This document shows positions 28,519 to 39,368 of a stretch of DNA of 64,000 nt, in pieces (position 1 is the first letter of the stretch; the number at the start of each line of letters is the position of its first letter). The position numbers and the translations under genes are program-made. The notes under the pieces are model-generated. The model searched no databases. It was not told where the DNA came from and worked only from the letters and a program-made list of their open reading frames with translations. The stretch lies in the sequence record ON286975; one strand, given 5' to 3'. The stretch comes from Escherichia phage I29.

Positions 28519-28595
28519 TGGTCTCCACGGAGTGATTCGAACACTCGACCTCCTGATCCCAAATCAGGCGCTCTACCAAGCTGAGCTACGCGGAG
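28519..28595 (-). tRNA. tRNA-Pro (anticodon UGG)
   Basis: Hand-folded: acceptor CTCCGCG/CGTGGAG (C1-G72), anticodon stem CCTGA/TCAGG, loop TTTGGGA, T-arm GAGTG-TTCGAAT-CACTC, encoded CCA. Confidence 0.8.
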
Positions 28596-28606
28596 TATTT
28601 ATTATT

Positions 28607-28681
28607 TGGTGGCCCTGGGTGGAATTGAACCACCGTCTGGCGATTATGAGTCGCTTGCTTGAACCTTCCAGCTACAGGGCC
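28607..28681 (-). tRNA. tRNA-Met or Ile2 (anticodon CAU)
   Basis: Hand-folded: acceptor GGCCCTG/CAGGGCC, anticodon loop CTCATAA, T-arm GGTGG-TTCAATT-CCACC, encoded CCA. Confidence 0.75.
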
Positions 28682-28682
28682 A

Positions 28683-28758
28683 TGGTGCTGATGGCAGGAC
28701 TTGAACCTGCAACCTATTGATTACAAATCAATTGCACTACCAATTGTGCTACATCAGC
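28683..28758 (-). tRNA. tRNA-Thr (anticodon UGU)
   Basis: Hand-folded: acceptor GCTGATG/CATCAGC, D-stem GCAC/GTGC, anticodon stem ATTGA/TCAAT, loop TTTGTAA, T-arm GCAGG-TTCAAGT-CCTGC, CCA. Confidence 0.8.
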
Positions 28759-28763
28759 AAAAA

Positions 28764-28862
28764 GGTGCTAGGTGATGGAATCGAACCACCTATGTATTCA
28801 ACGACTACCTCGTCTATTTTCAGGATTAAAAATCCTCGCCCTTGCCAAAGGGCTTACCTAGC
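28764..28862 (-). ncRNA. atypical tRNA-like element (possible pseudo-tRNA or small stable RNA); anticodon not assignable
   Basis: 7/7 complementary acceptor ends GCTAGGT/ACCTAGC, D-arm GCCC-TTTGGCAA-GGGC and T-arm GGTGG-TTCGATT-CCATC, but the 46-nt middle has no canonical anticodon arm and contains a tight AGGATT-TTT-AATCCT hairpin; 3' end is ACC-T rather than CCA. Confidence 0.35.
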
Positions 28863-28960
28863 TCAGTATGTTGACCATGTTGCTAGTCGGCGATGACGAC
28901 TGTAACATTTGATAATCCGGTTCTGCTTCCGGCTTTCGCTTAATTACAAGGTCAACAATA

Positions 28961-29051
28961 TGGCTGAGGGTAATGGAATCGAACCATCATCAAGTCATCC
29001 TCAACGGGACGGTTTTCAAGACCGCTTGAGCACCATTGCTCCCTACCCTCA
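28961..29051 (-). tRNA. tRNA-Ser (anticodon UGA), type II with long variable arm
   Basis: Hand-folded: acceptor TGAGGGT/ACCCTCA, anticodon stem GCGGT/ACCGT, loop CTTGAAA, long variable arm, T-arm GATGG-TTCGATT-CCATT, discriminator G, CCA. Confidence 0.7.
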
Positions 29052-29165
29052 TTTATAAACAATACTGATAATGACACTGATTTTCGAGCAGTTAGTGACT
29101 AGTATAAACGACGATAAATATCAATGCCATTATCTGTATGATTTATGCATTTAAAACTATAAATT

Positions 29166-29252
29166 TGGTGGGGAGTGGTGGAGTCGAACCACCCGAGTCG
29201 CAATGACAATAGATTTACAGTCTACACCGCTACCCCTACGGGATAACTCCCC
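29166..29252 (-). tRNA. tRNA-Tyr (anticodon GUA), type II
   Basis: Acceptor GGGGAGT/ACTCCCC, anticodon loop CTGTAAA and variable arm TGTCATTGCGACTCG closely resemble bacterial tRNA-Tyr; T-arm GGTGG-TTCGACT-CCACC, CCA. Confidence 0.8.
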
Positions 29253-29256
29253 AATT

Positions 29257-29331
29257 TGGCACCCCGTACTGGACTCGAACCAGTGTCAACGGCTTAGAAG
29301 GCCGCTGCTTTATCCACTAAGCTAACAGGGC
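29257..29331 (-). tRNA. tRNA-Arg (anticodon UCU)
   Basis: D-arm TTAGCTTAGTGGATAAAGC, anticodon stem-loop GCGGC-CTTCTAA-GCCGT, T-arm ACTGG-TTCGAGT-CCAGT, CCA; resembles bacterial tRNA-Arg(UCU). Confidence 0.75.
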
Positions 29332-32266: not shown

Positions 32267-32821
32267 TTACTCCCTGCTGTCAATATCAAAACTCATTGCA
32301 ATACGGTATGCCTCTTCTAATGGTAAGAGTCTCCCCCACACATCCCAACCGACATCAAGCTGCCTGCCAAACAACTGTTGTGTGGTTCCGTGAGCATGAC
32401 CGAACAGTTGGACTGATCCGTGAGGCTTTCTGTTCCACTTTGCAAACTGGTAATGGCTCATACAGATCAAATTCTTGTTGTGGCGAAGCTCGTAATAATC
32501 TACAACCTCATGACCGAACTCTTTCATAATTCTGACAGTCGTCCTTGTGTCATGGTTGCCACGAACAAGAATAATATGTCCGTTCAACATATTTAGAATA
32601 TCTGGAAGTAAGTTGTTGATATTCTTATCATTAGTGCACGCAATATCTCCCAAGTGGAACACAGTGTCTGCAGGTGACACAACAGAGTTCCACTTGGCGA
32701 TGATTCCCGCATTCATACTGTCAAGATTGTGATCATACTGAGATCTGTGTTTTTGACATGAATCAAACTCCATGACCCGCTGGTGGAGAAAGTGTGTGTC
32801 GCTTGTTACAAAGTATTTCAT
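32267..32821 (-). CDS. calcineurin-like metallophosphoesterase (candidate RNA 2',3'-end phosphatase)
   Basis: ORF track 32267..32926; ATG at 32821 (MKYFVTSDTHF...) has a GAGGAA RBS. Motifs SDTHF, GDI, GNHD, GHAHG match binuclear metallophosphoesterases. Confidence 0.7.
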   Translation of the reverse strand: MKYFVTSDTHFLHQRVMEFDSCQKHRSQYDHNLDSMNAGIIAKWNSVVSPADTVFHLGDIACTNDKNINNLLPDILNMLNGHIILVRGNHDTRTTVRIMKEFGHEVVDYYELRHNKNLICMSHYQFAKWNRKPHGSVQLFGHAHGTTQQLFGRQLDVGWDVWGRLLPLEEAYRIAMSFDIDSRE

Positions 32822-32828
32822 ACATTCC

Positions 32829-33239
32829 TCATTTAAGTTTAATGCAGTTTTTAAGCTGGCGTTCCATACGATCCACAACCTTGTCTGGAACATCATGAAT
32901 GCTTTTATTACCGTGGCGGTTTTCAACCACGATCACGGTATAACTATACCCATGACTGATTGCCATGTCAACATATTCCTGCACATGTTTTTCTTTTGTA
33001 AACGTATTACTTACCACGATACGGTCGTATCCCATACGCATCATATCTTCTACGTTATCTTTGCACCATTTTGCTGCGAGTGTTACTTTACTTGCATCCC
33101 AGTTGTAATTGCCGTCATCGTCATACCAGAACATGTCGTTCTCAAAATGTGGATACAGACCCTCTAAAGATAGCGCATTTGCCAGTGTTGATTTGCCAGA
33201 CCCTGGTAGACCACGCACGATATATAGCATTTTAGACAT
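32829..33239 (-). CDS. P-loop kinase, polynucleotide kinase-like
   Basis: ORF track 32829..33296; ATG at 33239 (MSKMLYIVRGLPGSGKST...) has a GGAGGG RBS; Walker A GLPGSGKST at the N-terminus as in polynucleotide 5'-kinase domains; adjacent to phosphoesterase and RNA ligase-like genes. Confidence 0.55.
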   Translation of the reverse strand: MSKMLYIVRGLPGSGKSTLANALSLEGLYPHFENDMFWYDDDGNYNWDASKVTLAAKWCKDNVEDMMRMGYDRIVVSNTFTKEKHVQEYVDMAISHGYSYTVIVVENRHGNKSIHDVPDKVVDRMERQLKNCIKLK

Positions 33240-33339: not shown

Positions 33340-34275
33340 ATGACAAATGAGGAACGTATGATGAAGTATTTTAATGCAGACGACCTAGTTGACAAAGGTC
33401 TTGTAACCAGTAGGTATTACCCAGATCTCGGGTTAAAGATCTATAAATATGCTAGAAAAGTATTTTACAACAATTTATGGCATTTGTCCCCTCGTTTACT
33501 GGAGTGCCGAGGCATTGTTGTAGGTAATGAAGGAAATGTTGTGGCATGGCCCTTCACAAAAGTGTTTAACTTGGGAGAAAACTCCACCAACCTGCCTGAC
33601 AATAAGCTTGTGACTGCGGTAGAGAAAAAGAACGGATTCCTTGGTGTGGTATCATCTCATAAAGGTGACCTATTGTTCTCAACAACCGGGTCTCTTGATT
33701 CTCCATATTGTAACCTTGCAAAGGAAACCATCCAAGAGCAATGTGGTAATTTAGATCTTATCAAGAAGGTTATGGGCAATGAAAACATGACATTCATGTT
33801 TGAAATTTGTCACCCTTCAGATCCGCATATTGTTCAAGAAGACCATGGCGCATATTTGATAGGTTGCAGATATAATGATTCTGGAATAATGCTACCAGAA
33901 GCAGCTTTAGATGGGATTGCCAAATACCTTGGTGCAAAACGTCCTCACACTGTGCGTGAAATCCCGTTCAGCTATGCAAAAGAATTAGCTGCAGAAACAA
34001 GGGGCGAAGGGTATATGATCCGTAAGCCTTACTACCCTTATGACCTGCAGCTGAAGATCAAGTCTCCATACTATTTGGCACGGAAGGCCGTAATGAGGGG
34101 TAAAGCTTGGAAGATTTGGGATGATGATATCTTTAAACGTATTGACGAAGAGTTTTATGGCATGGTAAACTTCATTCGTAGCAATTACACAGAAGATGTG
34201 TGGAACTGCCTCCTGGAGCAGGAACGCCGTGAGATACTTGATTGCTATTTTCACAACGAGGACTATATGCAATGA
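33340..34275 (+). CDS. RNA ligase-like nucleotidyltransferase
   Basis: 311 aa; covalent nucleotidyltransferase motif I-like VEKKNGFLG (KxNG); distinct from the DNA ligase at 36746; divergent from the kinase/phosphatase pair. Confidence 0.5.
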   Translation: MTNEERMMKYFNADDLVDKGLVTSRYYPDLGLKIYKYARKVFYNNLWHLSPRLLECRGIVVGNEGNVVAWPFTKVFNLGENSTNLPDNKLVTAVEKKNGFLGVVSSHKGDLLFSTTGSLDSPYCNLAKETIQEQCGNLDLIKKVMGNENMTFMFEICHPSDPHIVQEDHGAYLIGCRYNDSGIMLPEAALDGIAKYLGAKRPHTVREIPFSYAKELAAETRGEGYMIRKPYYPYDLQLKIKSPYYLARKAVMRGKAWKIWDDDIFKRIDEEFYGMVNFIRSNYTEDVWNCLLEQERREILDCYFHNEDYMQ

Positions 34276-34622
34276 AGAAGTTGATTGTGTGGCTAGATGA
34301 CTTGAGAGATCCGTCAAATTACGGAATCCAAGATGCTCTTTGGCTGAAGAACTCTTCTGAGTTCATGGATTTTATTAACGATAATAGAAAGCTCTACAGG
34401 CGCGTTTCTGAGTGGCATTTTGACAATGATCTAGGTGAAGTGCTTGAAGGGTACGACTGCTTCTCTGCGCTAGAGGAGAAACTTGTATTCGGAAAGCCAC
34501 CACTTATTGACAACGTGATTATTTTCGTGCATACTTCTAATCCATCGGCAGCTCGTAAATTTATGCTTGCTGCTGACTCATTCAAGAAGTTTGGAATAGA
34601 GATTAAACAAAACATCTACTGA
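34272..34622 (+). CDS. hypothetical protein, receiver (CheY-fold)-like residue pattern
   Basis: ORF track 34242..34622; ATG at 34272 overlaps the RNA ligase stop (ATGA). Pattern LIVWLDD ... HFDNDLG ... IFVHTSNP ... AARKF recalls the acidic/Thr/Lys positions of receiver domains (inference). Confidence 0.4.
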   Translation: MKKLIVWLDDLRDPSNYGIQDALWLKNSSEFMDFINDNRKLYRRVSEWHFDNDLGEVLEGYDCFSALEEKLVFGKPPLIDNVIIFVHTSNPSAARKFMLAADSFKKFGIEIKQNIY

Positions 34623-34630
34623 GGACACTT

Positions 34631-35392
34631 ATGCGACGACTGATTATTATCTCCGGTGCTGGTTTGAGCGCTGAATCTGGTATTCCCACTTTCCGATCTG
34701 GTAGCACTGCAATGTGGGAGAATTTCAGCATCGATGAGGTGTGCAACATCCACACCTTTGCCAAGAACTACTATAAGGTGCATGACTTTTACAATGCACG
34801 TCGTGTAGCTCTGGGCAGTGTTGATCCTAACCTTGCACATCTTCGGATCGCTGAGTGGTATTCCCGCTGGTCTGGTCGTGTGATCAACCTTACTACCAAT
34901 GTAGATGATTTGCTGGAGCGTGCTGGTGTAAAACATGAAGATATTTTACATGTCCACGGGTATTTGCCTGAAATCACCTACGAAGATGCTGAAGGTAATG
35001 ATGTAATTAAAAATATCGGATACACGGAGGTAGATACAGGCAAGTATACCTGGGTTAAGCCCAATGTAGTGTTCTTCGGTGAGGTTGCTCCTAAGTATAC
35101 AGACATGTATGACCTGTTGACATCTCTCACAAGCAATGATATGGTGATCCTGGTAGGTTGTTCTAACACAGTTATTAATTTTAACTGGGAATTGTTTCCT
35201 GCTACTTGTAAAGGCACAAAACTGCTGATTGTAAACAAGTATGATTCGCAGAGTGCAGATGGAAGTGGCATTTCACGTAGCGACCTTTATCAATATGAGG
35301 ATCGCGGGATCCCTGTATGGTTTAACGGTGCTGTTGACGCTTTCTCTGATAAAGCATTTATTGAAACTGTAGAAAACTTTATGGAACTTTAA
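34631..35392 (+). CDS. Sir2-family NAD-dependent deacylase/ADP-ribosyltransferase-like protein (zinc-ribbon-less)
   Basis: 253 aa; N-terminal GAGLSAESGIPTFRSG matches the Sir2 NAD-binding signature, with later HVHG; the canonical tetracysteine zinc module is not evident. Confidence 0.75.
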   Translation: MRRLIIISGAGLSAESGIPTFRSGSTAMWENFSIDEVCNIHTFAKNYYKVHDFYNARRVALGSVDPNLAHLRIAEWYSRWSGRVINLTTNVDDLLERAGVKHEDILHVHGYLPEITYEDAEGNDVIKNIGYTEVDTGKYTWVKPNVVFFGEVAPKYTDMYDLLTSLTSNDMVILVGCSNTVINFNWELFPATCKGTKLLIVNKYDSQSADGSGISRSDLYQYEDRGIPVWFNGAVDAFSDKAFIETVENFMEL

Positions 35393-35405: not shown

Positions 35406-36119
35406 ATGCTGAATACTAAACTGATCGACAACCTGGAAAAACTGTCCCAGCCTGAAAACTACCTTTGGTCTGCCAACTGGGTGGAAAACTGGAACCGTGT
35501 GGCAGCTAAAGTGAAAAAATCATACACACCATTCGAATTACAGCTTAGCTTCATTGAGGAAGAGTTCAATGAGGTTTTGGAAGAGCTGGAGAAAGGTGAT
35601 GGTGGAGATCACCTGCTAAAAGAGGCCTGCGATCTTCACGTTGTCACAAGTTATGCAGCTTATCTTGTTAATGATAACCACGAAAAGTGGTCAAACCTGT
35701 TTGATAATCCGCGAGGTCTTAAGTTCAAGATCGGTGAGTTCTATGATACACTGATCGCTGCGAAAAACACATCCAAGCAAAGAGCGTCAGCTTACCGACT
35801 AGCGGAGTTATCAACAGCTTTGCTGTTCCAGCTTAGCGGGGATGTGTGTGGGATGATGCGGAAGGTTCTAAAATCTAATGACAGTAAGTTTGCACGGATC
35901 AACCATCTACGGCATTCACACGGTGCCAGTGCAGATATGCCTGCTGAACAACTCATCGAGTTGGAGATTAAAGATCTTGAGCGTCGTTTTGGTGGTCGCT
36001 ACGAAGGTTTCGTTGCTAAAGAGGAGTTCTACAACGGCAATAAAGTTATTATATTCCTTGACAGTAAAGGTAAGATTATGAAGCCTTCGAGCTTCAAGGA
36101 TGTAACAGAGTATATTTAA
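35406..36119 (+). CDS. hypothetical protein, possible MazG-like NTP pyrophosphohydrolase
   Basis: 237 aa; EEEFNEVLEELEKGD ... LLKEACDLH resembles the EExxE...D metal-binding motif of MazG-like enzymes (weak). Confidence 0.35.
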   Translation: MLNTKLIDNLEKLSQPENYLWSANWVENWNRVAAKVKKSYTPFELQLSFIEEEFNEVLEELEKGDGGDHLLKEACDLHVVTSYAAYLVNDNHEKWSNLFDNPRGLKFKIGEFYDTLIAAKNTSKQRASAYRLAELSTALLFQLSGDVCGMMRKVLKSNDSKFARINHLRHSHGASADMPAEQLIELEIKDLERRFGGRYEGFVAKEEFYNGNKVIIFLDSKGKIMKPSSFKDVTEYI

Positions 36120-36124
36120 CAACA

Positions 36125-36150
36125 TAGCCGGGATTACCCGGCTTTACTTA
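36125..36150 (+). terminator. hairpin terminator after 35406..36119
   Basis: AGCCGGG-ATTA-CCCGGCT 7-bp stem followed by TTTACTTATTAT. Confidence 0.5.
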
Positions 36151-38903: not shown

Positions 38904-39368
38904 GTGGAAGACGGACGTTTAATGAAGTCTGAACGCAGGCTTATTGTGCAACTGATCCCAGAAACAGCTTGGTATAATAACCTACGAAACGCTGTGAAGA
39001 AGAGTGAGTGGGATAAGATCCGTAAGAAGTGCTACAGAGAAGCCAACTACACTTGTGAGGTGTGCGGAGGTAAAGGCAGCAAACATCCAGTGGAGTGTCA
39101 TGAACTTTACACTTTCGAAGAGGGAGTGATCCGGCTTGTCGGACTGATAGCGTTGTGCCCAGATTGTCACACATCTGTGCATCCTGGGTTAGCAAATATC
39201 CGTGGAAAGTATGCTCAGGCAGTTAATCAGTTGGCTAAGGTGAATAAGATCACCAAGGGTATGGCAGAGGCCTATTACCGAGACTGCTTTGCAGAGTGGC
39301 GTGAGCTTAGTAAAGTTCCAGAATGGAAGACTGACTTTTCGTGGATAGAAGGTTACCTTGATGGCTAA
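38904..39368 (+). CDS. HNH-like zinc-binding nuclease (putative)
   Basis: 154 aa; CEVCGG ... ECHE ... CPDCH...VH Cys/His pattern. Confidence 0.45.
   Translation: MEDGRLMKSERRLIVQLIPETAWYNNLRNAVKKSEWDKIRKKCYREANYTCEVCGGKGSKHPVECHELYTFEEGVIRLVGLIALCPDCHTSVHPGLANIRGKYAQAVNQLAKVNKITKGMAEAYYRDCFAEWRELSKVPEWKTDFSWIEGYLDG

Follow-up and report, generated by a model that had tools for sequence, protein, structure and literature searches.

A standalone receiver-like protein of the predicted cyclic-phosphate processing (cREC) family encoded between an RNA ligase and a Sir2 gene in Escherichia phage I29

Introduction

What is a small receiver-like protein doing between an RNA ligase gene and a Sir2 gene in a phage genome? 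The question arises from a 116-aa open reading frame (ORF) at 34272..34622 on the + strand of a 64,000-nucleotide stretch of Escherichia phage I29 (sequence record ON286975; this whole stretch is referred to here as the window). Its product begins MKKLIVWLDDLRDPSNYG... and was first remarked on in a reading made from the letters and ORF translations only (the sequence-only reading), which saw in it a CheY-type receiver without an output domain and regarded such a protein between a ligase and Sir2 as unexpected. We report that the product is, with near certainty, a standalone cREC protein (Pfam family PF20274), that is, a divergent receiver-fold domain without an output domain, and we tentatively propose a role for it in the repair of cut tRNAs.

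The divergent receiver was found and named cRec by Iyer, Anantharaman, Krishnan, Burroughs and Aravind (Viruses 2021; PMC7824862), who reported that it is never tied to histidine kinases and accompanies nicotinamide adenine dinucleotide (NAD)/ADP-ribose and RNA-ligase genes, and who proposed that it processes cyclic ADP-ribose (cADPr) or 2',3'-cyclic ends. A later survey (Iyer et al., Viruses 2022; PMC9503650, section 3.7.3) describes a type-2 neighbourhood 'prototyped by Escherichia phage V5' with a sirtuin, T4-like ligase, cREC, nucleotide kinase, MazG, and sometimes a phosphoesterase of the calcineurin-like type. There the sirtuin is proposed to be KptA-like and to act on 2'-phosphates, with cREC, which is called experimentally uncharacterised, opening the cyclic phosphate or processing ADPr>P; frequent cREC-Nudix fusions are also reported, and an NAD-derived substrate is offered as an alternative role (PMC9503650). 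Both the family and the type of gene cluster seen in the window are thus already published computationally, with function predicted only, and the position of the I29 gene is not the surprise that it had seemed, since the protein belongs to PF20274 and phage V5 has the same ligase-cREC-Sir2 cluster.

Results

Family membership and distribution of the cREC protein

The I29 protein matches PF20274 (cREC_REC, 'Cyclic-phosphate processing Receiver domain') at 53.4 bits, the gathering score being 27 (E=4.3e-14), over profile positions 2-83 of 88. The same domain is carried by 54 of its 55 close homologs (E down to 4e-67), the exception being a 63-aa fragment. A profile search recovered 1345 cREC clusters at 50% identity, a wider search at least 7710 clusters at 90% identity, and a cREC match is present in 357 phage records, mostly of Escherichia, Klebsiella, Proteus, Salmonella and Cronobacter phages. 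With conservation this deep and wide, the possibility that the gene is a spurious ORF was rejected. Most family members are 100-130 aa long and stand alone; in ten longer members no second Pfam domain was detected, so that this sample offered no instance of the published fusion with Nudix. No match for cREC was found in NCBIfam, nor among PADLOC or anti-defence families, and a bacterial genome search with a narrow alignment returned only distant cellular homologs together with a 354-bp contaminant contig.

Predicted fold

An AlphaFold2 model built on a 35-sequence alignment (predicted local distance difference test score, pLDDT, 90.5; predicted template modelling score, pTM, 0.85) has strands 1 to 5 at residues 4-8, 23-25, 45-51, 82-88 and 109-115, and helices at 14-17, 28-35, 41-44, 60-71, 91-98 and 101-105, with helix 5 absent. 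The modelled fold is that of a receiver-like Rossmannoid. Receivers rank at the top of a Foldseek search, albeit weakly (E about 0.01), and the nearest predicted viral structures are those that UniProt names 'Cyclic-phosphate processing Receiver domain-containing' proteins. The CheY-type fold without output domain postulated from the residue pattern is therefore borne out by the model, the Foldseek ranking, the viral structure matches and the PF20274 assignment; the fold search that the sequence-only reading had called for returned a receiver-like fold and not an unrelated one.

A PDB sequence search with the family profile yielded nothing significant (best E=0.17), PF00072 (Response_reg) gave no match at E<=0.1, and an hhalign comparison of the family profile with E. 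coli CheY returned a probability of 0.2. Because of these negative results, the relationship of cREC to receivers, as predicted from the model, is visible only in structure and not in sequence.

Conserved residues around the receiver pocket

Across 122 diverse family members, the residues that are nearly invariant are D9, D10, R12, P14, W24, D51, [H/N]52, D53, L54, G55, G60, E68, H87, [T/S]88, N90 and P91. D9, D10 and D51 are each present in 120-122 of the 122 and D53 in 119, and the conservation is focused on three active-site loops, formed by D9 D10 R12 P14, by D51 [H/N]52 D53 L54 G55, and by H87 [T/S]88 N90 P91. On the model, D9 and D10 follow strand 1, D51 lies at the end of strand 3 and T88 at the end of strand 4, and these correspond to the DD, D and T positions of receivers, with D53 at the D+2 position and N90 at the T+2 position. 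The receiver quintet consists of DD, D, T/S and a Lys after strand 5, and the D+2 and T+2 positions contact attacking or leaving groups (PMC12632262).

The residue pattern proposed for the protein stands in most of its parts: the DD pair (D9/D10), D51 and T88-S89-N90-P91 are placed as in receivers, and the DD, D and T/S residues are invariant in the family. The later Lys, K96, does not correspond to that of receivers: it sits in helix 4 instead of after strand 5, and although a close subfamily has it without exception, the family as a whole shows K/R/N at this position. There is no conserved Lys after strand 5 (109-115), and the C-terminal region is gapped in approximately half of the family. 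The presence of so many invariant residues around the pocket, beyond the receiver quintet, suggests that cREC is an enzyme with a defined substrate.

By its hidden Markov model match, its fold, its conserved Asp residues and the lack of a histidine kinase among seven neighbouring proteins scanned, the I29 protein is a direct member of the cREC family and differs from it in nothing essential. Compared with true receivers such as CheY and Spo0F (PF00072), it has the common scaffold but lacks the strand-5 Lys, helix 5 as far as the model shows, a sequence match and a kinase partner among the neighbours scanned, and adds the invariant R12, D53, H87 and N90. We consider it extremely improbable that cREC is a canonical response-regulator receiver serving host histidine-kinase signalling, in spite of its structural likeness to receivers and the depositor labels 'sensor kinase protein' or 'CheY-like' given to some homologs. 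The PF00072 and hhalign searches show no such relationship, the conserved Lys after strand 5 is absent, and the family has never been tied to histidine kinases (PMC7824862). This candidate was rejected, with the Lys, the PF00072 match and a kinase partner among the seven scanned neighbours all missing.

Overlap of the ligase and cREC genes

The cREC start and the ligase stop overlap in an ATGA at 34272..34275 (+), read directly from the sequence as first reported: the ATG at 34272-34274 shares bases with the TGA at 34273-34275 of the upstream 311-aa ORF, 33340..34275. A Shine-Dalgarno-like GAGGA motif at 34258..34262 (+), within the end of the ligase gene and 9 nt 5' of the ATG, is a putative ribosome-binding motif for cREC. 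Among loci from other genomes, designated here by L numbers, the ligase/cREC ATGA is kept in L001, L002, L004, L007, L008 and L009, and becomes GTGA in L011; the overlap is thus retained at 62% (L008, L009, L011) and at 51% (L004) cREC identity. The same ATGA overlap is seen where the upstream ORF is small and unrelated to the ligase (L003, L005, L026), with a TTG-start version (TTGA) in L016/L017, and within the window approximately nine pairs of ORFs of 60 aa or more overlap in this way. For both of these reasons, the ATGA reflects tight operon packing of a kind generic to this genome, with probable coupling of translation. The co-translation postulated from the overlap is thereby upheld as probable, while its link to the ligase in particular is not, and a ligase-specific coupling device was rejected in that unrelated upstream ORFs overlap cREC likewise.

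The overlap bears on a further explanation, that cREC is a non-catalytic pseudo-receiver acting as a small adaptor or phospho-switch that binds the ligase, Sir2 or the kinase and regulates it, possibly after phosphorylation of D51 by a small-molecule donor. The receiver fold has an intact DD/D/T pocket, single-domain receiver adaptors are well known, and overlap with the ligase gene would favour co-ordinated, near-equal synthesis, as would be expected for partners. Nonetheless, we think this quite unlikely: with no helix 5 in the model the alpha4-beta5-alpha5 output face is incomplete, the extra invariant residues crowd the active-site loops and form no surface patch, cREC persists with other neighbours and without Rnl1 and the kinase, none of the seven neighbouring proteins scanned is a histidine kinase or Hpt, and the overlap itself is generic gene packing.

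A possible role in tRNA repair

What might the substrate be? The explanation that we favour, tentatively and at somewhat less than an even chance, is that cREC acts as a phosphoesterase with an Asp-based mechanism and opens 2',3'-cyclic phosphate ends during tRNA heal-and-seal. It would then be an enzyme and not a signalling switch. In its receiver-derived acidic pocket, D9/D10 would hold Mg2+ and D51 would be the candidate nucleophile, and the pocket would have as family-invariant extras R12, D53 (forming with D51 a HAD-like DxD), H87 and N90. This pocket would attack the strained five-membered cyclic phosphate on the tRNA end left by host anticodon nucleases, and cREC would take the end-healing part that in T4 Pnkp falls to a DxDxT HAD phosphatase domain. 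The ring would be opened by cREC; the resulting monoester would be removed by a metallophosphoesterase, or a 2'-phosphate would be left for NAD+-dependent removal by Sir2; the 5'-OH would be phosphorylated by the kinase; and the break would be sealed by Rnl1.

T4 Pnkp and Rnl1 make up the classic phage tRNA heal-and-seal pathway against PrrC, in which T4 Pnkp heals the 2',3'-cyclic phosphate by way of an Asp nucleophile in its DxDxT HAD domain, and the active sites of receivers and HAD enzymes are geometrically alike. A 2',3'-cyclic tRNA end is favoured as substrate because the kinase encoded in the window lacks the DxDxT HAD half, the Asp-x-Asp pocket of cREC has a similar geometry, and contexts with ligase, kinase, phosphoesterase and tRNA genes recur.

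Neighbouring genes in the window

All of the neighbours of cREC in the window are RNA-end or NAD enzymes. The upstream 311-aa ORF (33340..34275, +) encodes an Rnl1-type (T4 RnlA-like) ATP-dependent RNA ligase (PF09511, E=1.1e-14; PHROG 562, E=7e-66); its start is placed at 33358 or 33361 in GenBank relatives, and in phage MaxTheCat it is labelled 'RNA ligase'. Beginning 8 nt past cREC is a gene for a Sir2-family NAD+-utilising protein (34631..35392, +; PF02146, E=6.9e-28; PHROG 2162, E=1.5e-108). Its translation contains GAGxS, TxNxD and HG motifs; no CxxC pairs are visible in it, and it appears to be without the usual zinc-binding module. Sir2 homologs are present in 975 phage records, many T5-like phages among them. 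The last gene of this + strand run, 13 nt past Sir2, encodes a candidate MazG-like nucleotide pyrophosphohydrolase (35406..36119, +) with a match to PHROG 671 'nucleotide pyrophosphohydrolase' (E=1.9e-21) and a weak one to PRA-PH (E=0.08), which the homolog in phage 05F01 matches at E=1.6e-4. It is followed by a G+C-rich hairpin, AGCCGGG-ATTA-CCCGGCT, with a T-rich tail (36126..36143, +), a terminator-like consensus match only, which likely marks the end of the ligase-cREC-Sir2-MazG transcription unit. Since the four genes are closely spaced and the hairpin and T-rich tail follow the last of them, we infer a single four-gene early-type operon in which cREC is second. A promoter scan was at chance level, with 18 sites and 17.1 expected.

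On the opposite strand, and separated from the Rnl1 gene by ~100 bp so that the two are divergently transcribed, lies a gene for a kinase-only P-loop protein of 136 aa (32829..33239, -), a candidate polynucleotide 5'-kinase by its matches to AAA_33 (E=1.8e-10), PHROG 2071 and PHROG 505 'polynucleotide kinase', and labelled polynucleotide kinase in MaxTheCat. Next to it is a gene for a calcineurin-like metallophosphoesterase (32267..32821, -; Metallophos_2, E=1.8e-6; Metallophos, E=6e-6), a candidate 2'/3'-phosphatase or cyclic phosphodiesterase. Seven phage tRNA genes (28519..29331, -), identified with ARAGORN and Rfam, are located ~5 kb upstream, and these tRNAs are possible clients of a repair module.

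One member of the tRNA cluster is unusual. The element at 28766-28862 (-) is 97-99 nt long, ARAGORN gives it a 4-base anticodon, and it matches the Rfam tRNA model at 35.5 bits; a near-identical phage labels it tRNA-Lys(AAA), and it seems to hold a ~25-nt insertion in the variable region, beside a UUU-type anticodon loop. tRNA-Lys is a classic target of anticodon nucleases, and this tRNA-Lys-like gene may be relevant to the repair module. Elsewhere in the window, an ORF at 38904-39368 (+), downstream of the endolysin gene with a small ORF between, corresponds to a MaxTheCat coding sequence annotated 'putative homing endonuclease' and may be a mobile insertion.

Taken at their predicted activities, the Rnl1-type ligase and the polynucleotide 5'-kinase are encoded together as in T4-type heal-and-seal. 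The window further resembles the T4 Pnkp and Rnl1 system in having its own tRNAs and a candidate Asp-x-Asp 3'-end phosphoesterase. It differs in that the kinase has no fused HAD phosphatase, so that healing would be split between cREC and the calcineurin-like phosphoesterase, and in the addition of Sir2 and the MazG-like protein. HAD phosphatases such as the T4 Pnkp phosphatase domain have DxDx(T/V) at the end of strand 1 and a cap/squiggle-flap architecture, neither of which is found in cREC. The chemistry that we propose would be analogous to that of the 2H phosphoesterases and the fungal-plant pathway of Trl1 (with its cyclic phosphodiesterase domain, CPD) and Tpt1, with opening of a 2',3'-cyclic phosphate or ADP-ribose 1'',2''-cyclic phosphate (Appr>p) and then NAD+-dependent removal of the 2'-phosphate. 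The cREC fold is unrelated to that of 2H phosphoesterases, and position 52 is His in approximately half of the family and Asn in the I29 protein. A Sir2 in place of Tpt1/KptA is hypothetical.

Neighbourhoods of cREC genes in other phages

The gene arrangements of 26 related loci were compared by tblastn with the window proteins. The Vequintavirus loci (L001, L002, L007) are arranged as in the window. A group with 51-62% cREC identity (L004, L008-L013) has the order phosphoesterase ... Rnl1-cREC-kinase-x-Sir2-DNA ligase-MazG, the phi92- and phAPEC8-like loci (L016, L017, L024, L025) have cREC-x-phosphoesterase-Rnl1-kinase, and the 05F01-like loci (L003, L005, L014, L018) have cREC-x-phosphoesterase only, where x is an intervening gene. 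Retention of cREC beside the ligase and Sir2 in relatives, which the sequence-only reading had made a test of the association, is found in two phage groups, although strict adjacency to both is lineage-specific and restricted to Vequintavirinae-type phages. The metallophosphoesterase is the most persistent close neighbour of cREC, lying at most ~2.5 kb away in every Vequintavirinae- or Stephanstirmvirinae-type locus long enough to score. In phage KKE7M, of the phi92/phAPEC8 group, Sir2 is ~33 kb from cREC. Besides cREC, the phosphoesterase and MazG, the genome of Klebsiella phage 05F01 encodes a Sir2 at a distance of 28 kb and, 88 kb off, an RNA ligase of the PF09414 type. A T5-like phage of Providencia has its cREC gene within a tRNA gene cluster. 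In L028, from an unrelated metagenomic phage, a single small gene separates cREC from the gene for a microbial PARG, and an NMNAT-like nucleotidyltransferase is encoded nearby.

Two side observations concern these neighbourhoods. Genes for NAPRTase-like and PRPP-synthetase-like proteins, an NAD salvage or reconstitution pair, are located 3-7 kb upstream of cREC on the opposite strand in several loci (L003 376-3107, L005 1-2165, L009-L013, L016-L018, L025); neither is detectable within the 64-kb window. In Christiangramia chromosomes (L033 2279-7262; L036) cREC is part of a conserved block DUF2779 - AAA ATPase - cREC with a divergent WYL-WCX regulator adjoining, which looks like an uncharacterised conflict system.

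Several of these results weigh against the opening of cyclic tRNA ends by cREC. The whole genome of 05F01 contains no Rnl1-type ligase and no kinase homolog, and the PARG and NMNAT-like neighbours in L028 point to ADP-ribose chemistry. Shared gene order among members of a single phage lineage is in part inherited and does not count as independent evidence. The metallophosphoesterase of Clostridium thermocellum Pnkp heals cyclic ends; by analogy, the one in the window could do so alone, which would make cREC redundant for RNA ends. The residue geometry described above is read from secondary-structure positions only, and we found no biochemical test of any cREC protein in the literature.

A different substrate is accordingly to be considered. 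cREC could act on NAD-derived small molecules, either linearising the Appr>p that would arise as a Tpt1/KptA-like Sir2 takes off a junction 2'-phosphate with NAD+, or destroying immune signals of the cyclic ADP-ribose type, with the product degraded by MazG-like or Nudix pyrophosphatases. cREC is directly 5' of Sir2 and two genes ahead of the MazG-like gene; 05F01 has neither Rnl1 nor the kinase but retains cREC, Sir2 and MazG; PARG and the NMNAT-like gene are close by in L028, and the NAPRTase- and PRPP-synthetase-like genes lie within several kilobases in related phages; and both cREC-Nudix fusions and this alternative role have been put forward (PMC9503650). Conversely, in Stephanstirmvirinae-type phages a distance of 28-33 kb separates Sir2 from cREC, with the phosphoesterase and, where present, the ligase close; none of the ten longer family members reproduced a Nudix fusion; no PADLOC or anti-defence family matches; and action of Sir2 as an RNA 2'-phosphotransferase is only hypothetical. 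On balance we regard NAD-derived substrates as possible but doubtful. A narrower version, in which cREC is not an RNA-end healer but a standalone counter-defence hydrolase of NAD-derived or cyclic-phosphate immune messengers (e.g. cyclic ADP-ribose isomers or Appr>p), would explain both the persistence of cREC without a neighbouring ligase or kinase and its PARG and NMNAT neighbours in unrelated phages, and we judge it unlikely.

Source phage and annotation of relatives

A 4-kb region around the locus shares 99.7% identity with Escherichia phages A6-1, MaxTheCat (Bas57), EduardKellenberger and AlexBoehm and matches 121 phage records at >=90% identity; the I29 genome is that of an rV5-like Vequintavirus. 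In the rV5-like GenBank records inspected, the cREC gene is a 'hypothetical protein'. Homologs in several Phapecoctavirus and Justusliebigvirus genomes are named 'putative RNA ligase and tail attachment protein' (e.g. L024 5992-6348, Escherichia phage nepoznato, nepoznato_23), a label apparently carried over from a neighbouring gene, and Proteus phage records label them 'sensor kinase protein'.

Approximately 18-25 unannotated 'Campylobacter phage' records (e.g. MG065653.1, MG065635.1; host Campylobacter jejuni) share 88-100% identity with E. coli vequintaviruses across the region, and their host label looks doubtful. The 354-bp contig recovered in the bacterial genome search (NZ_JPLA01000145.1, L030, from the Dyella japonica DSM 16301 draft assembly) holds a fragment 97% identical to the I29 cREC, and most likely derives from a vequintavirus contaminating the assembly.

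Discussion

Because both the family and its neighbourhood are already published, the analysis adds little as discovery, and its main use is as a pointer to an experimental question and as a correction of annotation, in that genes with a match in 357 phage records gain the name cREC/PF20274. Beyond what has been published, it contributes a structure model of high confidence, a residue map for the whole family, the absence of the canonical Lys, and the lineage-specific nature of the adjacency to the ligase and Sir2.

The class of host defences that cut tRNAs is growing, and phages counter them with repair modules. If it is true that cREC opens cyclic phosphates, it would become the first enzyme with a receiver fold to have RNA or nucleotides as substrates, and its activity would also clarify the role of the phage sirtuin in RNA repair.

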